A stretch of DNA of 64,000 nucleotides from Microbotryum violaceum (Eukaryota), in NCBI GenBank assembly GCA_001244265.2, contig LN717261.1, positions 1,379,591 through 1,443,590 of the forward strand, written 5' to 3'. Below are positions 3,060 to 64,000 of this stretch, piece after piece. The notes below the pieces were generated by a model. The model was given only the letters and a program-made list of their open reading frames with translations, was not told the origin of the DNA and made no database searches. The stretch's first letter is position 1. Every line of letters begins with the position of its first letter. The position numbers and the translations under genes were made by a program.

Positions 3060-3460
3060 GCGGCGCGCGAGCGTGAGTTGAACAGGCTGGCGCGGAGGCG
3101 GCGAACAAGGGGGCGGCTTGGCTGCGAAGGCGGAGGCGCCGAGGCGAAAAGCGGCGGAGGCGTGCAGACAGGCAGGCAACGGCTGGATGGGCGGACCAAG
3201 ATGTGGACGAGTTGACGAACGGTGCACATGGGTCGAAGGACGAGACTAGGCGCAAGTGACATGCGGCGATGCTCAAGGACGGGGCCAGCAAAGGCGCCGA
3301 GGCGAAGGGGCGGCTTGGCTGCGAAGGCGAAAAGCGGCCAGGTGAAAGCGGCGGAGGCGTGCAGAGCAAGGCAGGCAACGGCCGGGCAAACGGACCAGGA
3401 TGTGGACGAGTTGACGAACGGTGCACATGGGTCGAGGAACGAGGCTGGGCGCAAGCATCA
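3060..3460. repeat. Imperfect GC-rich tandem duplication, period about 199 bp
   Basis: ATGTGGACGAGTTGACGAACGGTGCACATGGGTCGA at 3201 and 3400; GGCGGCTTGGCTGCGAAGGCG at about 3112 and 3309. Confidence 0.85.
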
Positions 3461-3986
3461 TGCAGCGAGGCTTAAAGGACAGGGGGCGCGGTGGAGGCTT
3501 GCGGAGGCGAAGGCGCGCGTGTCAAGGCGCCGAGGCGAAGGCGCGAGGCGAAAGGCGGACAAGCCGTCAAACGGCGGCCCGATGTCGAAGTGTTCGAACG
3601 CTTGACAGAATGCAATTCAACACGAAGAACAGGTAGGTAATCGGGGCGCGCCGGCAAGCGCAGGATTTTTTTATTTTTTATTTTTATTTTTTTCGTGCTT
3701 CGACCATATGCCAGATCAAACGATCAGGGTATAGAAAGCCTGAAGTCGCGCATGTGGGCCTCAGTTTAGCTCAGTTCCTACCCTTTTTGACGAAGAGGTC
3801 GTGCCTCCCACGAGCGCTACTGGGCCTACGTCGGGTGGGAGTAGTTCCGGGTGGTTATCCTTCTTCAATCCATTGCAAAATGGGTCTACTCGTCCCAAGA
3901 CGGTGGATGCACCAAGCCCTTTGAAAAACTAGGTCAAATACATTCATGTGAGACTCCGTTGAGACTCGAGCGCCGCGGTGTCCCGG

Positions 3987-12733: not shown

Positions 12734-12890
12734 TGTTGGAAACAGCGATGATCCCGAAATGATCAACAAAAGAAGAAGAACGGCTGGACCAGGAGTCGAA
12801 CCTGGGTCGCTTCCATTCATTGGAAAAGCTTTGACCAACTAAGCTATCCGGCCCCTGATATCAGTGCAAGGTCTACTAACACCTTCAACA
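12734..12890. mobile_element. Short TGTTG...CAACA LTR-like unit enclosing the tRNA-like sequence
   Basis: TGTTGG at 12734 and TCAACA ending 12890; no matching TSD (GTTCC vs TTGTT). Confidence 0.4.
12781..12853 (-). tRNA. tRNA-like gene or pseudogene (73-nt cloverleaf; nominal anticodon TGA, non-canonical loop)
   Basis: GGCCGGA/TCCAGCC acceptor stem (1 mismatch), D-arm with A-box TAGCTTAGTTGG, TTTCC/GGAAG stem with loop AATGAAT, 4-nt variable loop, CCAGG-TTCGACT-CCTGG T-arm (B-box), downstream TTTT. Confidence 0.75.
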
Positions 12891-13594
12891 TTGTTGTCAG
12901 CATCGTCAGACGGGCGACGGATCCCCCCCACCACACCCCACACACACACACCATCACGCTTCATCTTCCAACAAAACACTGTATACTAAATATCTTGCTT
13001 TCATCTTTCATCTATTACAGGTCTGCCTTCGTTGCTCATGGACCGGCTCGCGATTTGAGATTGACTCGACGGTGACTCACGCTCTTTGGCTTCGGGGTTC
13101 TGAGTCAAGGGAGGGATCAGCAGACACAGGCAGAAAGTCGGCTTTGAGGGGCCAGGAACTGCTGAGGTGGAGGTTTTGAGGGGCCTCCACCGCGTCTTGT
13201 TGTGACCGAGCATAGACTTAGGACTTCGCGGGTCAGGGTAGTTGCGCAGTCGATCTCCTGTCTTTGTCTCGACCGAGTTGGGAAGTGACGGCGGGGTGGG
13301 CCTCTTGTCGCTTAGTAAATTGTTTTGTTACTCCTTTCTCTTTCTCTCTCTCTCTCCTTCTCTCTCTCATTCGTCTCCTGGGGGGGAGCAACCGCTTGGC
13401 TGGGGCACTTGAATCCCAAGTATCGGATTGGTGGACACCGGCCCGTTTCTCGCATCTTGCGGGCGGTTTGTGTTATCATTGTCGACTTCCATCTAGTTTT
13501 TCCGTAGGCCAATCAGGGGGAACAGGAATTGGGGGCAATATGATGAACAAGTTCTACAACAAAAAAAAAGACGGAGGCGACGGGAGGCGCCGCC

Positions 13595-15889
13595 TCCGTC
13601 GCCCGTCTGACGATGCTGACAACAACCCACCTGATCCGAGTCAGATTCCTGATGGCTACGAGCCGGTGGTACCTACGACGGAGCGGACTTCCGAGTTAGC
13701 CGAACGCTGGGGTGCTCCGGCAGGGTCCCGCCGTCGAGGGGGGGCAGAGCAGCAAGCAATGTTCGTCGACGTGGGGACCATCTTGGGAGACGTGATTCTC
13801 CTTAACGAGCTTCGAGGCTGGGAACAAGTCCTCAACGTCGTCGTCAACCTCGAAGAATGCAACGATTGGACCAACCTTTCGTCGATCGTTCAAGGATCCA
13901 CCGAGGGCATCAGCGGAATCGAGGAACTTGAAGCGTACCAGGTCTGGACCGGAAGTCCCGACGAGCCGACATACAAGCAGGCGATGGCCGGCGAGGATCG
14001 CGAGGATTGGTCCTTTTCCCTCATGACCGAGTACTCGATTCTGAACGGCATGAACACATGGGACAAGGAGGCCACCGATCCGCCGCCAGGTGTTCGAGCA
14101 ATCCCAACGAAGGTCGTCCTCACCCGCAAGCGGAATGACAAAGGTGACATCATCAAGTACAAGGCAAGGATCGTCGCACGGGGGGATCTCCAGAACCATC
14201 ACGGGGAAACATTCTCACCGACAGCTCGAATCGCCTCCATCCGGATGATCAACATCATAGCTCACGTCAAAGGGTATCGGCGGCTTCAGTTCGACGTCAA
14301 CAGCGCATACCGTCACGGCCACATCGCCGAACCACTATGGATCAAGCTGCCGGACGGTTCCACCCATCGACTGCGCAAATCCCTGTATGGTCTCAAGCAG
14401 TGGGGTCGTGAGTGGAACAAGGTCTTGCATTTGCATGCTGCGCTCGTCGATCGCGGTTTCAAACGAATGGAGGAGGATTTTGGGGTCTACCGAAGGGTTC
14501 GCAACATCGGGGGCGTCGATCGCACAACTCTCTTGGCCATCTACTCAACGACGGTCTTCTCGCCGGTGACGACGATCTCTGTCAAGATATTGCTGTTTCA
14601 TCCCACTTGTATTCCCGATTATGATTAGCTACTAGCTGTTGATATTAGTCGCCTCGCGCGTCTCGAGCATGCCTCGCGCGCGCTTCCTTAGCGCTTCTCT
14701 TCTTTCTCCAACTATCTTTACTATCATCTTCGGCTCTCGTACTTACGCACCTCGTGCCTCGGCTTCAGTTCCCAAAAATCTTGAAAGGTTCCTCAGCGAG
14801 TTCGAGCAACAGTTCAAGCTCAAGCGAGGCGAGGTCGAGTTATTCCTGGGGATGAAGATTACCACCGACGACGCATCGGGGATCATGACCATTGACCAGT
14901 GCCACCAGATCGAGTCCATCCTGAACAATCACGGGTTTGCGAACGCTTCCGCGGTGGCAACCCCAACCTCCGACAGCGATCAGCACTCAGATGGAGGGAC
15001 TGCTCATCTCAAGCTCAACTATCGCCAGGTCGTTGGTGAGCTACTCTGGGTCTCAGGATGCACAAGGCCCGATATCTCTTATGCGGTCACCCAACTGTCA
15101 AGACACTGCGCCGATCCGAAACCTGAACACTTTAGGTAAATGCGGCGAGTGCTTCGCTATCTGCGCGGGACAATTATCGTCGACTCGAGTACAATCGACA
15201 CTTGGAATCGATGTGACCTTGTACTGCGACTCGGATCATGCAGCGGAGAAGTCGGGGTGTCGATCAATTTCGGGTTACACAGTCATCATGGCCGGGTCGG
15301 CGATCACATGGGCGTCCAAGCGCCAAGTATCGCTTGCCACCTCGTCCGTCCAAGCCGAGTATCAAGCTCTCTCGGCTGCTGCCCGGGAGACGCTATGGAT
15401 TCGCTCTCTGCTTTTCTCACTCGGGGTCCCTCCATCTTCACCCACCATCATTCATGGGGATTCAACGGGAGCAATTGCCTTGGCCGATCACCCGACCTCA
15501 CACGCGACCACCAAGCACATTGCAACACACTGCCACTTTACTCGAGAGCTTGTCTCGAACGTCATCATCGAGCTCCGATGGATCGGGACCAAGGAGATGG
15601 TCGCGGACGGATTCACCAAGGGGCTCTTGCGTGTGCCACACGAGTCGTTCGTTCGGATGCTTGGAATGGTGGACGCTCCTCGCCAGGGGGCGTGTTGGAA
15701 GGGACTGCGCGAGCAGTAATGGCTAGAAGCGTCTTTGGGGTTTTTGGGTAGTTTAAGCCATTTTGGCCAGGGAGGCGCGGACTGCGTCAGCGGCGGTGCG
15801 GAGTCCTCTTGATTGGTTCCTCACCAATCATTGACTCTGCTATCGACCGTTGACTGAAGTTTGTGTTCTCGCCTTCCTGGACCAAAGAA
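13595..15889 (+). mobile_element. 5'-truncated Ty1/copia element (family B): degenerate RT-RNase H, PPT, start of 3' LTR
   Basis: EPTYKQAM, KYKARIVARG, LRKSLYGLKQ, YRQVVGELLW..RPDI, DSDHA, KHIATHCHFTRE, MVADGFTK; PPT AGGGGGCG then TGTTGG at 15693; frameshift at the YVDD region. Confidence 0.9.
14580..14777 (+). mobile_element. Solo LTR of copia family A inserted in the family-B RT (intron-less LTR form)
   Basis: TGTCAAG...CCCAAAA, homologous to LTRs at 41570 and 46216; TSD ATCTC/ATCTT (one C-to-T change). Confidence 0.88.
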
Positions 15890-28985
<13,096 letters not shown>

Positions 28986-29392
28986 CAGCTGACCAAACAC
29001 TTTGCGTGCAATGAATTGCGCAACTCGCATTACATCGTTGATACCCGGTCCCTGCTTCAGCTTGTCACTGCGCCGTCCGTAAAGACCCAAAGCTTCGGCC
29101 CCCGAGTCCCCATTTTCACTCGAAGCTTGTCATGATGCGGCCGCGGACGAACCGCGCATTTGATCTCCCGTTGCGTTCATGAACAACCCCCGTGACTGTT
29201 GCATCTGCTCGAGCTCCATCTGCTTGTCCTGCTGATGCTTCATCAGTGCCGGTACAGTGATGGGATAAGAGAAGCGAGGAAAGCGCGAACACGCCATTTG
29301 CAAAGCAGCATCCGCACACACATCTGCATGGGTTACAGAGAAGTGGTCAGAGATTTTACATCGCAATCAACTCGTATTCCTTGGGCAGAGCA

Positions 29393-33905: not shown

Positions 33906-36147
33906 ATGTCCTCCTCCGAATCGTCGCGCCCCACACCATACGCACCCACTGCGACCCCTTCCCGCCCTTCTCGAACCCGGGAAAGCTCCTCCTCGACCCA
34001 TCTCACGCGCCAGAAATCGTCCCACGTGCTGCTCCAAACCCCGGCTCCTGCTCGAACAACGACGACCTCGTCCTCGGGTAAGACATCGACCCCGGCCGGT
34101 GGGCCCGTGACGTCCGCTTCCTTCTCCCCTGCGTACCAAACTTCGATCAGGTCAAGGCATTCCCTCTACGGCATCGAGGACCGCATCGTACTCGACCTCG
34201 GCTCACGAATTTGGAAACTCGGTTTCAGTGGCGAACCTCGTCCGAGGGTTTGTCTCGATGTGACCAGTCTTGTTGAAGAAGAAGGCGAGACGGCCAATGA
34301 AGAGGCAGGGGGTTTGTTGTGGGCTCTGGAAGGGTATCAGGTCGATGAGACGAGGGAACGGATTAGGTACGAGAGGCTCAAGAAGGGGTTGAGGAGGATT
34401 TGGTACACGTACGCTCCCCACCTTTCTCGTGGTGCTTTTTGTCGGAGAGCTTAGTCATATTTTTTCCTCTTTTGTTGCAGTAACTTGATGACCGACCCGA
34501 AACAACGCAAGATCATCATCAGCGAGAACCCACTGCTCTCGACTCAGGTCAAGTACATGATCGCCAAAGTGCTCTTTGAGAACCTCCAGGTCAGTAGTCT
34601 CGATCTGTTCAGCAAGGTCAATACCTGAACGCAAATGACTCATTGTGACTCTATCATAGGTCCCGTCCATCACTTTTGCGTCTGCACCCGTCTTGGCGCT
34701 CTTGGCAACGGGGAACGTAACCGGACTCGTCGTCGACTGCGGTCATCTCGAAACGACCGTTTTACCCGTGCGTTCCACTTCCCTACCTTCCCTTCCCTCC
34801 ACCCCCCCCCCCTCTTCTCTCTCGAACTTACATCGTCCCCCTCCCACCCCTCCAGGTCTTCGCCTCCCGACCCTTATTTCCCTCCCTACTGTCCACCCCG
34901 CGTGCCTCCTGCCTTCTTAACGCCCGACTCAAAGCGCTCCTCCTCGAATTCGCTTCTTACGCACCCCCACCTACTTCGTTCAATTCCTCTAAGCCACCGA
35001 CGATAGGGAGGGTACCGGAATGTATACTGAGTGAGCAAGTGGTGGAGGAGGTTAAGAATAGGTGTTGTTTCGTTGGGAAGAGGGTGGAGGAGGAGGGGCA
35101 CGAAGAGGAGATAGAGGAACGTGAACGTCCTGATCTTGAAGGGTCGGCACTCCAAAAGATGGAAAAGAGGTTCGCGAAACGGACGAAGGCGATGACTTTA
35201 TCCTGGAGGTTACCCGTCAGTACAGCCAAAGCAGGTCGGACGACGAGTACCACACCGGGTACTTTGACGGGTCAAGGGTGGTTATTGATCCCCGGGTGGG
35301 TCAGGGAGCGTGCAGCGGAAATCATCTTCGAAAGTGGGGACGGGGGCGAGGATGAAAGAAGTTTACAAGAGGTCGTTTTGGAGGCTTTGTTGAAGGTCAG
35401 TGCAAAGGACGACCTGTCTGGCCAAATTGGAGGGACTGATCTTCTTTTTCTTACCCTTGCCTTGGCCTGTGTCTTTCTCCTCAGTTACCGATCGACTTGA
35501 GAAGGCCGTTGGCGCGGTCGATTCTATGCACGGGAGGTACAACGATGCTACCTGGCTTTATACCACGACTTAGGCACGAGATTGATGAAGTGTTGAGGCT
35601 TTCGCAAACGGCACCTCTGGGGTCCAAGCCGATTACCCAGGGAAAAGATTCGGCGACGAGACGAGCGTATCGAGCGAGGTTGGACAAGCTACGAACGACA
35701 CCGAGGTATGCGTCGTTGACACCGCTGAGGAACCAGATTTCCATCCTCAACGATTCTTCCAACTCGTTCAATGACACCGAGACCGCAGAGGATGGGGAGG
35801 GACCAAAAAGATTGGGTCCTCGATCGGGAAGTGCTCCTGCTTGGAGCGCAAGTCTGTTGAATTGGGTCGGGGGTAGTCTGGCAGGATGCTTGAAGTTGGG
35901 GGGTGTGGAGGAGGTCAAGAGGGAGGGGTGGGACGAGAGACAGATCGAACGGGAGAAGGGGAAGGAGGGGTCTGAGAGGGCGGAGGTAGGGGTGCAGCTC
36001 GGGGAGGAGGCAGAAGAGGAAGAGAGGATGGCGAGGGGTACGGCTCCGCTTGGACCGACGCTGGGGATGGGCGTGGTGGTGAACAACGTGGAGGAGGGGA
36101 GTGAGGGGCGGCCGAGGGTCAGCCAATGGGTTGGTTTGGAGGCTTGA
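33906..36147 (+). CDS. Divergent actin-related protein, dynactin Arp10/Arp11 (Ro7)-like, multi-exon
   Basis: RHSLYGIEDRIVLDLGSRIWKLGFSGEPRPR, TGLVVDCGHLETTVLP, IPGWVRERAAE, LCTGGTTMLPGFIPRL, WVGGSLAG. Confidence 0.8.
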
Positions 36148-40050: not shown

Positions 40051-40320
40051 CTAAACTGCTTCCGTAGCCACGATCAACACCGGTTCATCGCCCAAACCCT
40101 TGACCCCTTTGAACGTCGGCGTCGTCTCCTCCTGAGGCGGCAACGCTCCGACCCTCTGCGCCGAAGCGAGATAAACGGACCAAAGACAACTCGCCACGCT
40201 ATGAAGGGTGGTCGAGCATAGACGGGCATGACGGACATGTTGACGATCTGCGCAGGGAAGAAGAGGCACCACGAGTGCGAAGTCGAGGTCCAGAGGCGGT
40301 CTTGGAGACGTTCGAATTCG
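40051..40320 (-). pseudogene. 3' fragment of an Mpv17/PMP22-family membrane protein gene, frameshifted
   Basis: RLQDRLWTSTSHSWCLFFPAQIVNMSVMPVYARPPF, then a shifted frame SVASCLWSVYLAS; matches the W...Q..N...P...R......W..YLS pattern. Confidence 0.65.
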
Positions 40321-40327
40321 GCGGCGT

Positions 40328-41152
40328 GGGCTTGGGAGATTGATGACAATCTCAACATTAGTAATTCTGGTTGGCGGGGGCGGCTCCCGGCCGGCGGGCG
40401 GGAGCGCGAGCTTGGGAAATTGGCGACGGTCTCAACATTAGTAATTCTCGTTGGCGGGGCGCGGCTCCAGCACAGGCTCCCGCGGAAGGCCAGCACCCGG
40501 CCAGCACAAGCCGACGCAGAGACCGGCGTGGACCGGTGTGGAACGCCGCGGAACGTCGCATGCCCGACTTCGGCTCCGTCCGATAACCGGTACAAACATC
40601 AACATCTCTCAGCTCATGGTACAAGCTTCCTCGGGAAGTAGATAATCAGTTGGGAACTAGTAATCCCTGAAGCTCTTTAGAGCTGAAGGTTTTTTCCAGA
40701 AAAATTTGGTGGCGCGGGCTTGGGAAATTGACGACGATCTGAGCGACTTTGCGAAATTGACGGCGATCTCGGCGCCGGGGGGCGGCTTGGGGCGCGCCGC
40801 GACTTTGGGAAATTGACAGCGCCGTGGGGCGGCCTGGGTGGGCGCGCCGCGACTTTGGGAAATTGACGACGATCTCAGCGCCGGGGGGCGGCTTGGGGGG
40901 GTGCCGCGACTTTGGGAAATCGACGACGATCTCAGCGCTGAGCGCTGAGCGGCGGCTGGCGAGGCGCGGCGAGTTTGGGAAATTGACGACGGTCTCAACA
41001 TTACAGCCAACCGGCAAAAGCCAGCACAGACCTGCACAGACCGGCGCGGAACGGCGGTGAATGACACGGACTGCAAAGTCCTGTACTAGGCGTGCGTTTT
41101 GGCCCGTCTGATAGCTGTGTGCAAACATCAACATCTCAGTAGCTCATGGTAC
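40328..41152 (-). repeat. Two related transposon-end-like blocks with about 8 subterminal GGGAAATTGACGACGATCTC-type repeats
   Basis: Both blocks end in CAAACATCAACATCTC..AGCTCATGGTACA (about 40623 and 41152), i.e. TGTACCATGAGCT on the minus strand. Confidence 0.7.
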
Positions 41153-41299: not shown

Positions 41300-47580
<6,281 letters not shown>

Positions 47581-48259
47581 GTTCAGTCGCGAGCACTTGC
47601 CTCCGGAAAGACAGCAGCCGCAGCATTTGATCCGTGAGATCGGCCTCGAGCTCGTGACGTCCGAGGTGCTTGCGACTCAGGCCATGGAGTCCGAGTTGCG
47701 ATGCTTGTTTTCTGAACATGCAGCAACGGCGTGGAACTTGGGGAACGGTCAATGTAAGCCGCGGTACCTCTTGTATCTGAAGCCATTGCAGAAACCTGAC
47801 TTCCTCCCCTTTCTCATCCTCACCCGGCCCGGCCAGCAATCGAAGTCAACATGCCAAACCTAACGACGAAGCCGCAGGTGGTCTTCACCCACCACCAGTT
47901 AATCATCCCCAAGGTGTAAGTACTACTTTACATTTTTGCTTTTGTAGGCTCCAGGATCTGATGGATGGGCCGACAAGCGTGTGTGCAGTCATTGGGAAAA
48001 TGCACAGGGGGCGAATCGCTTGGGAGAACCAGTCGATTTCATGCGGATGTCCGAAAGGGGCTTTTTACCGGTCACAAGTGCGCCGAAGGATCTCCGACGC
48101 CACTCCCCGTGACTGTCCATGGGCACCCCGGGCGATTTGCACGCACCATCCTCCGTGAAGGTGATCTGTGTGCGCTTGTCTGCACCGTCGAGGCTCGCGC
48201 TTGGAGGGACAGGTCCTCCGGCAAATGCAGTGGCACGGGCGCCTAAACTTCGTGCCCCT

Positions 48260-54911: not shown

Positions 54912-56885
54912 TGTAGCGACTGCTCAAGCGGTGGTAAGGCTCTGATCAACGGACCAAGGAGACCAAACCAAGGAGTTGCTTGTTACACACCTGCTCAAGC
55001 ACTACAGTGAGTTATGATAGCTAGGAAGGTAAAGGAAGAAGGAAATGTAGTACTCACCTGCTCAAGCGGTGGTAAGGCTCTGATCGACGGACCAAGGAGA
55101 CCAGACCAAGAAATTGCTTGAGCAGGAGAGAGAGGAGCGCGGAGCCAGTTGGCTCGGGTTAGCGCGCGGCTGGGCCAGCCGCCTTTGTCAGGTGCACGGA
55201 CCTAGCCCAGGAAGGAAGAGAGCTAAGGTGTGGAAAGACAGGCCAAATGGGGGTAAAATAAGACCAAGAAAAGGAGACCTGATGCGAGAAGGAAACATAG
55301 GAGGCTGTCAATCTCACACACCCCCTACTTCGAGTATCAGGGAGCACAGACGCCAAGGCGACCGCGGTGCCGAGTAAAGAGGTCGCGAGACAATGCCTTG
55401 GTGAAGATATCCGCCGTCATCTCGCCAGTGTTGATGTATTGAACAATGATATCACCCAGGGACACCATATCCCGGACAAAGTTTTCGCGGAGGCAAATGT
55501 GCCGAGTCTGCGCATGGAAAACCGGGTTCTTGGTGAGGGCATTGGCGCCTTGATTGTCGCCATAGATGAGAACAGGCTTCGAAGACGGAAGGTCGAGCTC
55601 ATCAAAGAGCTGACGCAGAAAAATCGCTTCCTTACCAGCGTGCAACAGCGCAAGGTACTCGGCGTCACAAGTGGAATCCACAACGCGCGACTGAAGGCGG
55701 GAAGACCACGAGACGGCAGCACCTGCATAGACGAAGGTGTAGCCCATAGTCAACTTGGAAGAAAGGACGCACGCACCCCAGTTGCAATCGGATTAGCCCA
55801 AGAGCGGAGCCGGATCCCCACGAGCGTAGCGTAAGCCGTGGGAAAGAGTGCCAGCGAGGTAACGGAAGGCGTGCTTGACAGCTCCCCAAGCAGCAGCAGA
55901 CGGCGAGTGAGAGAAGCGGGCCAAGTAACCAACAGTGTAGGCCAGATCGGGCCGAGTACCAGTGGACGCGTACATGAGGGAGCCAATAGCCTGCAGGTAC
56001 CGAGTACCATCCGGGAACGGGGTGGGCTGGAGCTCGATTTCAAGGCGGAGATCAGACTACATGGGAGTCGCAACAGGATGAGCGTCGGACATACCAAATT
56101 GGGCAAGGACGTCCTTGAGGTATTGCTCCTGACTCAGGGAGATGGAGCCGTCTGGGGAACACCGGATCTGGATGCCAAGGATGTATTCCGCCTCACCAAG
56201 CCGTTTGACACCATAGCGCTGCTCAAGACCCTGAAGAGTACACTCAATCTCCGGGAGAGAAGGGCTGATCATGAGCAAGTCGTCGACATAGAGTGCAATG
56301 TAGTGGTGCACATTTCCCGTAGTCCTGACGTAGACGCAGTGGTCGGATTCGGTGGCAACATAGCCAAGTGCAGACAAGGCGGAATCGATCTCATCATTCC
56401 AAATGCGACCGGCCTGGCGCAAACCGTAGAGGGACCGGTGCAGCTGGAGGACCTTGCCCGGCATGTAGATACCGTCGGGCACACAAATGTACAGGGGTGT
56501 GTCGAGTTTGCCGTGAAGATAAGCTTTGTCGATGTCGGCCTGGTGGATGTTGTACCCATGAGCGGCAGTAAGGGCCAGGAGTGCACGGGTGCAAAGGTCT
56601 CATCAAAATCGATACCAGAGCGCTGGGAGTCACCACGGGCAACAAGGTGGCCCTTGTAGGACTTAACCTGGCCATGCTGGTCACGTTTGGTGCGAAAGAC
56701 AAAGCGGGAGCCCAGGACCTTGGAGTCTGCTGGGACAAGGGACTCGTCAATTGGTGTGAATGCTGAAAAATCCTGCAAGAGCGAGTCAAATTTGTCGCGG
56801 GCCGCAAGGCACCATCCATCCGCTTGAGGAGTGGCCATTGCTGCGCGCCAGTGAGGTGGGTCGCAAGCAGCCTGGGTCGAGTTCA
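54912..56885 (-). mobile_element. Ty1/copia family D, copy 1: 3' LTR 54912-55318 plus degenerate RT/RNase H; 5'-truncated
   Basis: [45 protein letters not shown]; purine-rich PPT; TG...CA LTR. Confidence 0.92.
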
Positions 56886-56975: not shown

Positions 56976-59165
56976 CGACTGCTCAAGCGGTGGTGAGTCT
57001 CTGATCAACGGACCAAGGAGACCAGACCAATGAAGTTGCTTGGGATTACACACCTGCTCAAGTGCTACAGTGAGGTACCATGACTATGGAAGAGAGAGAG
57101 GAACTAGGAAGTGTAGTGCTCACCTGCTCAAGCGGTGGTGAGTCTCTGATCAACGGACCAAGGAAACCAGACCAATGAAGTTGCTTGAGCAGGAGAGTGA
57201 GAAGCGCGGAGCCAGTTGGCTGGGGTAAGTGCGCAACCAAGTCCGTGCCCCAGTGTCAAGCGCACGGACCCAGCCTGGAGGTAAGGGGAGCTAGGCGGAG
57301 AGTGACTAGGTCCGTGCACTTGATGCAGGTGCACAGACCAAGCCCAGTGATGAGAGAGCAGGGTGAAGGACAGGCCAAAAATCACAGAGAGGACAAGACA
57401 GAAAGAGGGAGATGATGTGAGAAGGAAGTAAAGAGAGTTGTAACTCTCACACCCCCCCCTACTTCGAGCATCAGGGAGCACAGACACCAAGTCGGCCGCG
57501 GTGCCGAGCAAAGAGGTCGCGAGACAAGGCCTTGGTGAAGATATCCGCCGTCATCTCGCTGGTGGCAATGTATTGGACGACGATGTCGCCCATGGAGACC
57601 ATTTCCCGGACAAAGTGTTCGCGAAGCCGAATGTGTCGAGTGCGAGCATGGAAGACCGGGTTTTTGGTGAGAGCATTGGCACCCTGATTGTCGCCGTAGA
57701 TGAGGACGGGCTGTGAAGAAGGGAGACCAAGCTCACCAAAGAGTTGGCGTAGGAAAATGGCCTCCTTGCCGGCGTGGGACAGAGCGAGGTACTCGGCGTC
57801 GCAAGTGGAGTCGGCGACGCGTGACTGTAGACGGAGGACCAGGAGACGGCGGCACCTGCGTAGGTAAAGTTGTAGCCCATAGTCGATTTGGAGGAGAAGA
57901 GGCATGCACCCCAGTTGCAGTCCGAGTAGCCGACCAAGGGAGCCGGATCACCACGAGTGTAGCGTAAGCCGTGAGACAGGGTGCCGGCAACGTAGCGGAA
58001 GGCGTGCTTGATCGCACCCCAGGCAGCAGCAGACGGTGAACGAGAGAAGCGGGCCAGATATCCGACGGTGTAGGCGAGGTCGGGACGTGTACCGGTAGAA
58101 GCATACATAAGAGAGCCGATCGCTTGCAGGTACCGAGTTCGATCCGGGAATGGGGTGGGTTGGAGTTCGACTTCGAGCGGAAATCGGGCTGCATGGGTGT
58201 GGCGACAGAGTGAGCATCGGACATACCGAAGCGGGCAAGAACGTTCTTGAGGTACTGCTCCTGACTGAGGGTGATGGAGCCGTCGTTGGAGCGCCGAATT
58301 TGGATGCCGAGGATGTATTCTGCCTCACCAAGTCGTTTGACGCCGTAACGCTGCTCGAGACCGTGGAGGGTACGCTCGATCTCTGGGAGAGAAGGGCTGA
58401 TCATGAGCAAGTCGTCAACGTAGAGCGCAATATAGTGACGCTCATCACCGGCCGCCCGAACGTAAACGCAGTGGTCCGACTCCGTGGCGGTGTAGCCGAG
58501 AGCCGACAAGGCAGAGTCGATCTCGTCGTTCCAAATACGTCCAGCCTGGCGCAAGCCGTAGAGAGAGCGGTGCAGCTGGAGAACCTTGCCCGGCATGTAG
58601 ACTCCATCGGGTACGCGAATGTAGAGTGGCTTGTCCAATTACCGTGGAGGTAGGCCTTGTCAATGTCGGCCTGATGGATGTGGTAACCATGGACGGCTGC
58701 GAGGGCAAGGAGTGCGCGAATGGATGTGAACTTAGCGACGGGTGCGAAGGTCTCGTCAAAATCGATGCCCGAGCGCTGAGAGTCGCCACGGGCAACAGGT
58801 CGGCCTTTGTAAGACTTGACCTGGCCGTGCTGGTCGCGTTTCGTACGGAAGACGAATCGAGAGCCAAGAACCCTGGCATCTGCAGGCACGAGGGACTCAT
58901 CAATTGGTGTGAAAGCGGAGAAATCGCGGGAAAGTGAGTCGAATTCGGCCTGGGCAGCGAGACGCCACTCGTCAGCTTGAGGGGTTGCCATTGCAGCACG
59001 CCAGTGAGGGGGATCCCGGGCGGGCGCGATCAGTTCCGTCGAGTCCGTAGGCGCGGTGTTGAGCAAGGCGACGGCGCCGGGGGCAAGGTGGGCGACGGGT
59101 GGAGGCGAGTGGAGAGCGTCGTCCAGGTCGTCGGGGAATTCGGGTGCGAGACAGACGGAAGCGAT
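56976..59165 (-). mobile_element. Ty1/copia family D, copy 2: 3' LTR 56976-57451 plus RT/RNase H; interrupted by family E
   Basis: Closely similar to 54912-56885; ORFs 58401-59066, 57733-58638 (YVDD), 57551-58108 and 57471-57905. Confidence 0.92.
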
Positions 59166-62100
59166 TATAACGCGATCACCACGACTGTCAGGAGAGGTTG
59201 AGAGTCAAACAGAAGTGATGAGAAGGAAGCTAAGAAACAAAAAGGGGGGCCCGCGCTGGGATAGGCCCAGCCGCGGGTGAAATCGCTGGCGCGCTGAGGC
59301 AGTCGCGCGCGTCTAAGTCCTCACCGCAGGGGGGCGGGCTAGCGGGCTCGCGCAACGACCGAGGCGCCCCTGTCGAGCTGAGAGTGGACTCTTCACACCC
59401 CCCCCCACGCGAATGCGAGGCGCGGGTGTCGAGTGCGAAGACCGAGGGCGTAGCAGTCTGTCAAGAACACCTTAGGGCCGAGAGCCTTGGTGAAGATGTT
59501 GGCCACCATGTCGCTGGTTCCAACATGCGAGAGTGAGATGTCGCCCCGATTCACCATGTCCCGAACGAAGTGCTCGCGCAAGCGTATGTGTCGCGTGCCG
59601 GAGACACGGACAGGGTCGTGGGCGACTGCTGCAGCGGCTTCGTTGTCAGTAAAGATGTGAGCCGGTGCAACGGGTTGGACATGGAGCTCTTCGAGTAGCT
59701 GACTGAGGTAAATCCCTTCCTTGCCAGCATGCGAGAGGGCGAGATACTCAGCGTCGGTGGTGGAATCGGCAACTCGAGATTGACGTTTGGATGACCAGGA
59801 CACGGCGGAGCTGGCGATGTAGAAGACGTAGCCCATGGTGGACACCGATGTATTGACACAGGCCCCCCAATTCGCGTCGGAGTAGCCTACCACACCCGTG
59901 ATACGTGTCTCGCCACGAGCATAGAGCAGTTCGTCGCGATACGTGGCTCGGAGATAGCGGAGGACGTGCTTGACCGCGATCCAATGACGACTGCCGGGGT
60001 TGTTGGCGAAGCGGGCCAGGTAGGAGACGGCGAAGGCGATGTCGGGGCGGGTGCCAAGTGAGATGTAGAGAAGCGAGCCGATAGCCTGCAGATACCATGA
60101 CTTGATCTGTTCGGTGCCTTGACCCGGGATGGCGGTGAGCGAAAGGCCGGGAGTCATTGGGACTGTAGTGCCGCGAGTCGTGGTGTCGAAATGGAACCGA
60201 GCGAGCACGTCCATGATGTACCGTTCCTGGGACAGGGCGATAGAATCGTCGTCGAGCCGCCTGATCTGAATGCCGAGGATGTATTCTGCCGGGCCAAGGC
60301 GCTTGACTCCGTAACGTCGTTCGAGGCCCGAGATGACACGTTCGATTTCGGCCAGGTCCGGGCTGATCATGAGGAGGTCGTCGACGTACAGCGCGATGTA
60401 GTGTGGGCGTTGACGCTCATCGAGCCGAGAGTATATGCAGTGATCGGTGCCCGTCGCCGTGTAACCGAGGTCGCGAAGCGAAGCGTCGATGTGTCGATTC
60501 CAGATTCGGCCGGCCTGTTTGAGCCCGTAGATTGAGCGTCGCAGCCGAAGCACCTTGTCGCTGGGAAGGTCGAAGCCGCGCGGTGCCGTCATCCAGATGT
60601 CGTGATCGAGGTCGCCGTGAAGGTAGGCTTTGTCGATGTCCGCTTGGTGTACGTGCAGGCCATTGGCGGCCGCCAGCGCGAGGAGTGAGCGTATCGAGGA
60701 GAATCGGACGACCGGTGCGAAGGTTTTGTTGAAGTCAATGCCGTCCCGTTGCCGATTGCCCTGCGCTACCAGCCGTGCCTTGTGTCCAGTGATTTCGCCG
60801 AGTGCGTTCCGTTTCGTTTTCCAGACGAACTTGGACGTGACGATGGTCGCGCCCGTGGGTACCGTAGAGCGTTCCTTGATGGTGAAAACCTTGAAGTCGT
60901 CGCGCATGGAATTGAACTCGTCATCGGCGGCCCTGGCCCACACTTCACGCTTGTCGCTCGACATCGCCTCGCGCCAGGTCTGTGGGTCGCTTGTGATGGA
61001 CTTGACTGGCTGGATGGCCTCAGCGTCAGAGGTGTTGTCGTCGGTCGCGATGAAAGCGCGGTGGTGTCGGGTGAGGAAATCGATTTCGTCCGGCGATTCG
61101 TCACCAGAGTGGCGCCCAATGAGGTCGAGTTCGTCGGGCGACTCCTCAGCCGATGCGGGCTCGCGGTACGTGCTGAAGTCGGGGCGGTGCACGTCCGGTG
61201 GGTCGAGGCGAACCTGGGGCTGTGAGCTGATGAGGTCGAGAGGATCGGCGGAGTATTCAGAGTCGGTTGGCAAGGCCGAGGGTGACGATGACGCAGGGAA
61301 CGACGGTGAGGGCGCAGGCGAGAGCGCAGGCGACGGCGACGAGGGCGGCTCAGGAGACGGTGACGAGGACGGCGCAGGCGACGGTGACGAGGACGATTCG
61401 ACATCTGTAGAATTAAGCAAGGTTCCGCCAGTGTACCCTGGGGTCACGTCAACGGCGCTCATGGCAGAATCATCAAGAGGGGATGAGACGTCCATGTGCG
61501 CCGCCCTTACTAGTGGGGTCCATGTCTTGACAGTGTCTTGAGGTTCGGCAATGGGAGCGCTGGCGAAGTGCGTGTCGGCGTCTTGCTCGGTGGAGTCGCC
61601 ATGTAAACCGGGGAATTCAATGTTGAGGAAGCTGGCATTTCTGCCCAAAATTATCTTCTTGGTCGTTGTGTCGTAGAAACGGAAGGCTTTAGAAGCCAGG
61701 TCGTAGCCGGTGAAGAGAACGCGAACCGCTTTGGGGTCGAGTTTCGAGCGAAGTTCGGGCGCGACCGTGAGCCAAGCTGTGCAGCCAAACGGGTGAAGCG
61801 CCAAGGCGTTGGCGCGCTCGCCCTGCCAGACGGAGTTCGGTGTTTCCTTGTCGAGGGCCAAATGTTGACACAGATTCTTGCAGTATACGAAATAAGCTGC
61901 GGCCTCCTCCCAGAATGTCTTGGGTAAGTGTGCGTCCGCAAGAAGCGCAAGCACGCCTTCGACGATGGAACGATTGACCCGCTCTGCACGACCGTTCTGT
62001 TGAGGTGTTCGAGGGATAGAGTATTGTCGGCGTGTGCCGCGTGCCTTGCAGAAATCCGTGAACGCTTTCGAACGGTATTCGCCACCGTTGTCGGTTCGGA

Positions 62101-62502
62101 GGACCTTCAGTGTTGCACCCGTCTCGAGTTCGACTTCGGCAAGCCAAGTCTTGAACACGCCGAACACTTCGCTTTTGTGTCCGATCGCGTAGGCCCAGAG
62201 TTTGCGGGAGTAATCGTCGAGGAACGTGACAAGGTACTGTTTGCCAGTCAAGGACCGCTCGGGGAGGGAAAGCACATCACTGTGCACAAGGCCGAGTCTC
62301 TCGGAGGAGTGCGAATCCGAATCGGGAAAAGGAAGACGATGGCCCTTGGCACTGAGGCAAGCATTGCAGACAAACTTCTCTACCTCTTCGTCACTATATC
62401 CGGCCCCGAGACCCTCCAGCAAACCAGTGGCAACCATCTTCTGTATGGACGACGGTGCGAGATGGCCGAGGCAGCGGTGGAGAGTCAGCAGGGGCACGGA
62501 AG
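59166..62502 (-). mobile_element. Ty1/copia family E: 3' LTR 59166-59397 and uninterrupted pol ORF (pre-integrase, integrase, RT, RNase H)
   Basis: 1034-aa open frame 59393-62497 with [37 protein letters not shown]-run PPT; stop codon overlaps the LTR start TGTGA. Confidence 0.96.
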
Positions 62503-64000
62503 TGTGAAGAGTCCACTCTCAGCTCGACAGGGGCGCCTCGGTCGTTGCGCGAGCCCGCTAGCCCGCCCCCTGCGGTGAGGACTTAGACGCGCGCGACTGC
62601 CTCAGCGCGCCAGCGATTTCACCCGCTGCTGGGCCTATCCCAGCGCGGGCCCCCCTTTTTGTTTCTTAGCTTCCTTCTCATCACTTCTGTTTGACTCTCA
62701 ACCTCTCCTGACAGTCGTGGTGATCGTCTTATAGGTACGCTGAAATAGATCACTTCTGTTTGACTCTCAACCTCTCCTGACAGTCATGGTGATCGTCTTA
62801 TAGGTTATTCGCCCATCGACCTACCGCTGGCATGGACACGTCGTTGCCCCTAACGACGGGTGCCCACCCAACAATCCCCGCCAAACAGCTCGCCGCACTT
62901 ACGTCGCTGCTGTCGGGTCTCACCACTGCCACATCCGCCACGTCGTCCGGCACCTCTCGCACCGCCTTTCCCAAGCACGCACGCTTGGATGGGCCCAAGA
63001 CGTTTGCGAGCTGGACACGCCAGCTTCGCCTCTGCCTCGCGGACGACATCCGCTCATACGTCCTTGACGGGATCGTGCCCGCCGACTGGACACCTTCGCA
63101 CCGCTCCGCCCGCGATGTCGTGGCACGTGAGCTCCTAGCGAACTCGATCGACTCAGCCGACGTCTCGGCAGTCCTCGACCAAATCCCTACCGCCGACCTC
63201 ACAGCGCCCAAAATCTACTCGACGCTGAAATCGCGGTATGCTCCGGATGACGCCACTCGCACGCTCGAGCTCTTCTCACGACTATGGAGTTTCTGGCCCA
63301 TGCCCGGCACCGTTTGCGAATTCGACGGTTGGATCATGGAGTTCAAAGCCATTGCGCAAGAAATCATTGCTACAAAGACGACTATCAACAATGTTCTCGC
63401 CACACTCCTCCTCGCCATTGCACACCCGTCCCTTGAGAGCTTCAAGGCGTCGTTCACCGATGAACAGCGCACCCAAAGATCTCTCCCTGCCATCGATTCG
63501 CTTGCCGATCGCATGCGTGTCCAACTTTGGTCCACCAACGTCCCCAGCACTCAATCAGCCCTCCTTGCCTCGTCGTCACGTTCTACCCGTCCCACATGTC
63601 TTGCCTGTCGCAGCCCTTCGCACCGTGTGGCGGAGTGCCCTGTGAGAGCGAAACACCCGCCGCCAGGCCCTTGTCGCTCCTGCAAGAAGAATCACTGGTC
63701 ATTCAACTGCAAGAAAGCTCTCGAGAACAGCAACAGGCCCGACACGGCCGACTCGACCGCCGACTCGCAACACCATGTCGGATGTCTCGCTACCGGCCTT
63801 CTTGCGCATCGTCGCCAGCTTCGCGCCAACTCCTTCGTCATTGACTCGGGCGCCACTTCGCACATGGTCTCGGACAAGTCACTGTTCACAAACTATCGAC
63901 ACGTCGCCCCTACGAAGATTGGTGGTATTGCAGGGGGTATTAACGCCATCGGGACGGGAAACATTGCCTTTGTTGCCGCCACGGGTCATCCGATCACGCT
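62503..64000 (+). mobile_element. Second copia family E copy in opposite orientation: 5' LTR 62503-62802, PBS, gag-protease ORF from 62832 running off the window
   Basis: LTR near-identical to the reverse complement of 59166-59397; GGTTATTCGCCC after the LTR; two CCHC-type knuckles ([27 protein letters not shown]) and [11 protein letters not shown]. Confidence 0.95.

Follow-up and report, generated by a model that had tools for sequence, protein, structure and literature searches.

A candidate intron built by duplication in the long terminal repeats of Ty1/copia retrotransposons from a basidiomycete-like fungus

The DNA analyzed here, called the window throughout, comprises 64,000 nucleotides (nt) from Microbotryum violaceum (contig LN717261.1, positions 1,379,591 to 1,443,590 of the forward strand; 55% GC, no N). 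Near its right end begins element B, a Ty1/copia retrotransposon of a family that we call E, whose 5' long terminal repeat (LTR) carries a 69-nt intron-like unit. We propose that this unit is a young, duplication-built intron candidate residing in the LTR of a basidiomycete-like fungal element, a proposal that the evidence below supports in part. Units of the same build exist in the LTRs of two further copia lineages, C/C' and D. We give a little less than an even chance to the interpretation that all of these units are spliced from the RNA and then regenerated during reverse transcription. Somewhat more tentative is a fuller version of that interpretation: that the units are true spliceosomal introns within the repeat region of the LTR (R), built from a duplicate of R, with the 5' copy spliced, the 3' copy unspliced, and the intron regenerated in both LTRs in every generation, family E representing such an intron at birth.

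Anatomy and origin of the family-E unit

We refer to the first and second copies of the repeated segment in an LTR as X1 and X2; sequencing runs with similar names are always called runs. In element B, two direct repeats of 57 nt (62680-62736 and 62749-62805) are identical at 56 of 57 positions and are spaced 69 nt from start to start; Tandem Repeats Finder did not report this family-E repeat. The 69 bases that are additional in the B LTR consist of GGT, then 12 nt of filler, then the last 54 nt of the LTR copied once more; deleting the unit yields the short LTR form. AG|GT is present at both ends. The initial annotation had called a 69-nt duplicate at 62735-62803, with donor GTACGC, branch-like CCTGAC, and a TAG acceptor. 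Its sequence and coordinates are exact, and all three signals are read in the unit. The claim that the acceptor straddles the end of the LTR and the primer-binding site (PBS) also holds: its A (62802) is the last base of the LTR, and its G (62803) is the first base after it. The CTGAC motif occupies 62777-62781, placing the branch-like A 23 nt ahead of the last G. The terminal A of the LTR and the GGT that follows make the junction AG|GT, and hence the unit GT...AG. Moreover, with its position upstream of the PBS, the insert is R/U5 sequence (U5 being the unique 5' region) and is inherited within the LTR.

How readily could such signals arise by chance? A random 57-mer contains AGGT in 19.5% of cases. 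When simulation starts from a 57-nt duplicate that ends in AGGT and adds 12 random nt as filler, a GTRNGY donor accompanied by a CTRAY branch located 10-40 nt ahead of the AG appears in 0.44% of cases.

The filler reveals how the insert may have formed. It matches B's own gag at 11 of 12 positions, on the same strand and 485 nt downstream, and the 10-mer ACGCTGAAAT occurs only at the filler and at 63222 on both strands of the 64 kb, with 0.14 occurrences expected. A patch copied from gag between two leader copies points to template switching, as simple slippage gives no such patch. The likeliest origin of the insert is thus a template switch in the course of reverse transcription. Specifically, in one reverse-transcription event, the polymerase would have switched template, set down the gag patch, and then added a second copy of the last 54 LTR nt, both placed ahead of the PBS, just after the LTR end and its GGT. 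The long form would then have spread to a minority of family-E copies. The duplicated piece crosses the LTR/PBS border (...TTATA plus GGT) and starts after the CT-rich ...CCTTCTC|ATCAC. From these edges we infer that the left one could be the RNA 5' end, making 62680 the putative transcription start and X1 the putative exon 1, and that the right one could be the 3' end of strong-stop DNA with 3 nt of primer copy. Speculatively, a modified tRNA base (position 37) might halt plus-strand synthesis at that right edge.

Other copies of the insert were surveyed at 90% likeness in the contigs of four runs (X1, X4, X17, and X18) among 24 listed. None of the 24 is on record as RNA, and two of the four, although guessed to be RNA, may be DNA, as they contain LTR sequence from upstream of the putative start. 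The filler is spanned, with 2-9 differences per contig, in runs X1 and X4, both from organism A, and in run X18, from organism E. Examples are record 5 of run X1 (62683-62781, 8 differences), records 27, 28, and 29 of run X4, and, with 2-6 differences, records 17, 18, and 19 of run X18. Run X18 alone holds at least three distinct long-form variants, and the variant letters among long copies fall at 62746, 62748, 62750, 62758, and 62759. The existence of several variants in three runs means that the long form is neither an assembly artefact nor private to the B copy. Run X17 has no cover at the filler. Depth at 62738 relative to 62810 is 1105/19596 in run X1 (about 6%), 29464/157909 in run X4 (12819 at 62748; 8-19%), and 19.2/234 in run X18 (7-8%); depth is not copy number, and the overall figure of about 6-19% of leader depth is rough. 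Position 62738 reads C, as in gag, in all run X18 cover, and T in about half of run X1 cover and 82% of run X4 cover. The C is thus found in both organisms; it looks ancestral, with T a CpG transition. Record 20 of run X18 shows a short-form 5' LTR joined to the PBS and gag (loose end before 62749). Record 18 of the same run, at low depth, joins 62747 to 62856, skipping 108 nt (second repeat, PBS, and gag ATG), and appears to be a deleted copy or a chimeric contig. In metagenomes, a scan with the LTR pattern found no match, and a scan with gag gave 118 pattern matches, none confirmed.

We note two further features of element B. First, a G>A at 62786 is private to X2, as every covering contig reads G, and it creates a 5-codon upstream open reading frame (ORF) in X2 (ATG GTG ATC GTC TTA TAG, 62785-62802). 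Second, the gag-protease encoded downstream has its nearest protein cluster in Basidiomycota. Rfam returned 0 matches on 59000-64000 at an E value up to 1, and a sigma-70 promoter/terminator scan, which is irrelevant for a eukaryote, returned 0 sites.

Units of the same build in neighboring families

Direct repeats of at least 30 nt spaced by at most 300 nt were listed without bias across the window. Eight families emerged, four of which are LTR-borne arrangements of X, spacer, and X (families E, C, C', and D). Table 1 collects their coordinates with those of the other features discussed.

Table 1. Positions of LTRs, repeat copies, reading frames, and reference introns in the window (minus-strand subfeatures are given in transcriptional order)
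Feature	Coordinates	Strand	Details and basis
Family-E element B, 5' LTR, long form, 300 nt	62503..62802	+	98% match to 59166-59398; alignment
Short-form equivalent of B LTR, 231 nt	62503-62733	+	TGTGAAG...CTTATA; alignment
B repeat copy X1	62680..62736	+	54 nt of LTR end + GGT; right after CT-rich ...CCTTCTC; alignment
B filler, 12 nt, ACGCTGAAATAG	62737..62748	+	between repeat copies; templated patch from gag
B repeat copy X2	62749..62802	+	repeat search, alignment
B intron-like unit, 69 nt	62735..62803	+	AG|GTACGC...CTGAC...TTATAG|GT; sequence, phase script
B PBS-like site, GGTTATTCGCCCATCGACC	62803..62821	+	only GGTTAT common with the Met-tRNA anticodon-loop PBS of neighboring families
B gag-protease ORF, 389 amino acids (aa)	62832..63998	+	ATG 62832, open to window end; Pol_BBD
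Filler source in gag, ACGCTGAAATCG	63222..63233	+	10-mer and 12-mer matches
Family-E element A, 3' LTR, short form	59166..59398	-	98% identical to B LTR; ends ...TTATA, then unrelated flank
Element A pol ORF, 1041 aa	59393..62518	-	5'-truncated where B begins; ORF and domain search
Family C 5' LTR, long	46216..46487	-	X1 46368 to 46308, spacer 46307 to 46288, X2 46287 to 46227
Family C 3' LTR, same element, short	41570..41760	-	X then ATGTACTAAAA; X 61/61 identical to X1
Family C' 3' LTR, long	15888..16174	-	X1 16041 to 15981, spacer GTTAGTTACTTTGCAATACTTG, X2 15958 to 15899
Family D_b 3' LTR, long	56976..57275	-	X1 57187 to 57124, 81-nt spacer (GTGAGC), X2 57042 to 56979
Family D_a 3' LTR, long	54917..55207	-	candidate intron 55057 to 54920, 138 nt, donor GTGAGT
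C-lineage solo LTR, short form	14580..14779	+	inside the reverse transcriptase of another copia
Host actin-family gene	34488..35900	+	470-aa frame after intron removal; collinear Actin matches
Actin intron 1, 70 nt	34590-34659	+	GTCAGT..TAG
Actin intron 2, 88 nt	34768-34855	+	GTGCGT, CTTAC 25 nt before CAG
Actin intron 3, 89 nt	35396-35484	+	GTCAGT..CTGAT..CAG

The family C 5' LTR reads, in order, X1 (61 nt, ending CCTCAG), the spacer GTTAGTCTTGCAATATACCG, X2, the tail ATGTGCTAAAA, and the PBS GGTTATGAGCC, and its candidate intron spans 46307 to 46227 (81 nt). None of the spacer's 10-mers has a source in the rest of the window. The element occupies 41570-46487 on the minus strand, and its LTRs are 99.4% identical over 180 nt. 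In this young element, the 81-nt GT..AG unit is found in the 5' LTR, 11 nt inside the LTR end, and the 3' LTR is without it. Family C' is a diverged relative of C, with a candidate intron of 82 nt (15980 to 15899). The possibility that the C' LTR is a 5' LTR was ruled out by the upstream polypurine tract and 3' internal sequence. In family D, a 64-nt X1 ending GAGCAG is followed by the donor GTGAGC or GTGAGT, a spacer of 74-81 nt, X2, and TCG; the D_b X2 likewise ends GAGCAG before TCG, and the candidate intron there is 145 nt (57123 to 56979). At its own end, the family D spacer repeats part of the end of X a third time, directly before GTGTGT (CTTGAGCAG|GTGTGT).

In total, long forms in the window comprise the 5' LTRs of E-B and C and the 3' LTRs of C', D_a, and D_b, and short forms comprise the 3' LTRs of C and E-A and the solo LTR. 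All five long LTRs have exactly two copies of X, and no three-copy LTR is present. The short forms equal the exact removal of one period, and in all three lineages (E, C/C', and D), X begins after a CT-rich tract. An early reading, under which the family-E insert was a private accident and long forms were confined to 5' LTRs, was dropped after the C, C', and D units and the long 3' LTRs were found. Regarding the solo LTR, it interrupts the RVT_2 domain of a plus-strand copia (ORFs 13222-14628 and 14925-15719), and its flanks ATCTC/ATCTT look like a target-site duplication.

The two copies of X in one element evolve in concert. The C spacer is homologous to that of C', and the D_a spacer to that of D_b, so the duplications predate the splits. 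Nevertheless, X1 and X2 of the same element are alike at 59/61 positions in C, 55/61 in C', 63/64 in D_b, and 59/64 in D_a, compared to 52/62 and 46/62 for the orthologous X copies of C and C'. Informative sites in C/C' number seven that group copies within an element, zero that group orthologs, and zero that cross. The D families show two substitutions and one indel of the within-element type and zero of the orthologous type, a count that ignores the first 12 alignment columns (misaligned). The 56/57 identity in family E comes from a single copy and is uninformative because the event is young.

The short form with which the B LTR is compared, at 59166-59398, is the only other family-E LTR within the window. 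It terminates a second element, A, in which it is preceded by the G-rich polypurine tract GTGGGGGGGG. Element A has the domain order gag_pre-integrs, rve, SH3_retrovirus, and RVT_2, which is the Ty1/copia order, with integrase before RVT_2. The start of the B LTR adjoins the truncated integrase of A: B is nested at 62502/62503, in opposite orientation, interrupting the protease/integrase border of A, and contigs from other strains carry A sequence past this point (loose ends 62499 and 62502). The partner LTR of B, that is, its own 3' LTR, and the target-site duplication lie beyond the window. The initial annotation regarded 59166-59397 as the sister 3' LTR of B. It is indeed of the short form and equals the unit-removed form, but it belongs to A, and because it is the LTR of a different element, no 5'/3' asymmetry within an element is shown for family E. 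Nor is the long form 5'-specific at the DNA level, given the three long 3' LTRs of C', D_a, and D_b, and thus, any asymmetry would have to sit at the RNA level. For family E, one contig is suggestive: record 29 of run X4 covers 62713-62802 including the filler and continues for 76 unaligned letters past 62802, which suggests, from a single record whose further letters are unread, a long family-E LTR outside the 5' context. Finally, the ORFs that the annotation described as intact are open where they fall in the window (gag-protease, 389 aa; pol, 1041 aa).

Splicing and regeneration weighed against the alternatives

Retrotransposons copy themselves from mature RNA; thus, an intron upstream of gag should be lost. 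The notion of regeneration is that the duplicated repeat could prevent this loss. Transcription would begin at the first base of X1, and the unit at the RNA 5' end would be spliced out. The copy at the RNA 3' end would stay unspliced, as the LTR end or cleavage removes the acceptor and the downstream exon. The spliced 5' end would then template minus-strand strong-stop DNA that copies exon 1 (X). If the unspliced 3' repeat received this product at X2, extending it across the filler and X1 would rebuild the long LTR, with X2 overwritten by X1 in the process. Were it to land on X1, a short LTR would result. Such a cycle predicts a repeat that spans from the start site to the splice junction, the two-copy rule, homogenization of X1 and X2, and coexisting short forms. 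Under this scheme, the older families C/C' and D would look like mature versions of the family-E design. The initial annotation had suggested regeneration, and the model here is in essence that idea, with the asymmetry it needs placed in the RNA and not in the DNA. Recurrence, exact AG|GT boundaries, and concerted evolution favor it.

The splice-like phase of the units can be compared with chance and with host introns. In the sense direction, all five long LTRs have a GT..AG phase with G at donor position +5 (four by script, C' by eye); in the antisense control, two of the five have a GT..AG phase. In C and D, the repeat ends exactly at AG and the spacer starts exactly at GT, and in E and C' the repeats extend 2-3 nt beyond the splice-like junction. 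For simulated random X plus spacer, any phase occurs in 20.7% of cases and any phase with +5G in 6.3% (0.063), and an exact AG|GT boundary occurs in 0.36% (0.0036) per event, or 0.09% (0.0009) with +5G. Two non-LTR control arrays (40319-40987 and 3096-3517) have no GT..AG phase on either strand. The LTR units measure 69, 81, 82, 138, and 145 nt, with donors GTACGC, GTTAGT, and GTGAGC/GTGAGT, and branch-like motifs CTGAC, CTTAC, CTAAA, and CTCAC. As a host reference, we used the introns of an actin-family gene, whose frame from ATG 34488 reaches a stop at aa 46 if unspliced, and two exons of which match the Actin profile collinearly, just below the Pfam cut-off. The LTR units are in or near the host range for length (70-89 nt), donor, and branch-like motif. 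A further candidate host intron, 34409-34480 with donor GTACGC, was rejected: once past the junction, the frame runs into a stop, and ATG 34488 is the likelier gene start.

The alternative that fares best, unlikely in our view yet deserving serious weight, holds that the units are an R/U5 duplication that is never spliced. It would be inherited via full-length strong-stop DNA, and its GT..AG phase would have arisen incidentally or through the PBS start GGT. First-strand transfers that are misaligned or come too early, from one X copy to the other, would delete the unit and homogenize the repeats. The long form in the 3' LTRs of C', D_a, and D_b, and probably in one family-E LTR outside the 5' context, suits this scenario, as do the 21% of random duplications and two of five antisense controls that show the phase. 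Aberrant strand transfers that yield duplications and deletions are, moreover, documented in retroviruses (PMC12657518). What non-splicing leaves unexplained are the exact AG|GT boundaries in C and D with the strong donors GTTAGT and GTGAGC/GTGAGT, the fixed number of two copies, and the beginning of X at a start-site-like position. Additionally, plain inheritance gives no X1/X2 homogenization, yet the C/C' informative sites fall seven to zero to zero.

More doubtful is the possibility that the family-E insert is a neutral one-off accident that hitch-hiked with an active subfamily, its likeness to C and D being coincidental. An error event is indicated by the patch templated from gag, a minority of family-E copies has the long form, and the six variable sites, none of which falls in the GT, the +5G, CTGAC, or the AG, would avoid these signals by chance about 35% of the time by our own estimate. 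Standing against coincidence are the presence of such units in three lineages within 64 kb (joint chance about 2.5e-4 for GT..AG with +5G), the concerted evolution in C and D, and the match of the signals to host introns.

DNA repair can yield tandem duplications with short templated insertions, and the two LTRs of element C differ, but we deem a DNA-level event after insertion (replication slippage or a break-repair template switch) very improbable: several long-form variants in three runs and two organisms mean that the insert multiplied with the element, homologous spacers in diverged members imply inheritance through retrotransposition, and the duplicate, whose first base sits at a start-site-like position, crosses the LTR/PBS border.

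Splicing with regeneration, our favored interpretation, has several points weighing against it. It draws on contigs and on the window sequence, and its transcription start and polyadenylation sites are putative. No 69-nt skip is present among the listed contig joints, though contigs seldom show one. Most family-E copies are without the insert, and hence, the insert is dispensable for activity. Standard reverse transcription is expected to give identical LTRs; the long 5' and short 3' LTRs of element C are unpredicted by the simple cycle, and they would need a heteroduplex, a single-strand deletion late in replication, or loss of the unit from the chromosome afterwards. In family E, AG|GT follows from the LTR-terminal A plus a PBS starting GGT, and the C/C' junctions read GGTTA, like the PBS start GGTTATGAG. 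To some extent, then, the way the PBS starts may mechanically generate the GT at the junctions. We defined the statistics with the data already in view, and the structure in C and D may be shared by ancestry and not be independent. The donor GTACGC is unattested in any verified host intron. Finally, the fold of the short-form leader equivalent (62749-62860) is unremarkable (z = -0.24).

Relation to known systems and neighboring features

Tandem duplication of an AGGT-containing segment is a route of intron gain (the Rogers model; Hellsten et al. 2011, PMC3265369), and a case is described in the potato RNA-dependent RNA polymerase gene (PMC4974935). Analogous to those introns, a short duplication over AG|GT makes a GT...AG unit in family E, the candidate intron resembles the exon, and splicing would restore the RNA. 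The differences are threefold. First, the family-E unit lies in the LTR/leader and not in a coding exon. Second, it probably came from reverse transcription, and its splicing is a prediction. Third, the arrangement is not a simple duplication, as the 12-nt gag filler separates the copies and supplies donor positions +3 to +6.

Split-intron retroviral vectors (Ismail et al. 2000, as reviewed in PMC3182074) provide a second parallel. In them, too, LTR copying positions the donor, so that the integrated copy has an intron although the packaged RNA cannot keep one. Those vectors are engineered, with the donor between U3 (the unique 3' region) and R of the 3' LTR and the acceptor beyond the packaging signal. 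By contrast, the LTR units are natural, the whole candidate intron sits in R/U5, and the duplicated R would serve as the landing site. In retroviruses, the junctions of aberrant strand transfers lie close to the PBS or at the 5' end of the RNA (PMC12657518). There, as proposed for family E, template switching makes duplications, deletions, and foreign patches; the retroviral products, however, are defective dead ends, whereas the family-E product multiplied and the older families conserved theirs.

Among natural systems, human T-cell leukemia viruses (HTLV) and foamy viruses have a major splice donor inside R, which is consequently present at both RNA ends. Only the donor is in R in these viruses, with the acceptor far downstream, and they have no duplicated R and no regeneration. 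A search of full-text literature, with most subscription journals outside it, found no description of natural LTR introns or of their regeneration. Introns aid expression in many fungi. If splicing and regeneration occur, the duplicated R would be at once the 3' half of an intron and a strand-transfer landing pad, resolving the conflict with intron loss. The units would then be a natural counterpart to engineered split-intron vectors, and family E would offer a dated, traceable intron birth, since its filler is still recognizable as a gag copy. If the units are not spliced, they would represent an R/U5 duplication that recurs, in exactly two copies that evolve in concert, across three copia lineages, and would constrain the mechanism of strand transfer in half-tRNA-primed elements.

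Half-tRNA (anticodon-loop) priming is described for copia and Ty5 (PMC5371799; bioRxiv 10.1101/2025.04.25.647736), and it fits the GGTTATGAG sites in the window. Specifically, family C and the element at 24255-28986 bear GGTTATGAGC directly after the LTR (46215 leftwards and 28797 leftwards, minus strand). The two sites are of the methionine tRNA anticodon-loop, half-tRNA type and differ after 10 nt (TCAACGGGC vs CACACCGATC), which suggests two different methionine tRNAs or drift. The PBS-like sequence after the 69-nt unit, GGTTATTCGCCC, starts GGTTAT and diverges from this type after 6 nt. By reasoning, no tRNA anticodon loop fits it: read as an anticodon loop, it would require G at position 33, and the window's only tRNA is a tRNA-Ser. 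Tf1-like self-priming was rejected because inspection by eye showed no stretch at the PBS complementary to the putative 5' end of the RNA. In the element at 17189-22212, a T-run takes the place of a recognizable PBS.

Finally, the two control arrays are GC-rich tandem arrays with units of about 50-80 nt (40319-40987) and about 199 nt (3096-3517), and amid the retrotransposons lie an ORF with a DUF6570 domain (47075-47860, plus strand) and the tRNA-Ser(TGA) gene (12781-12853, minus strand).

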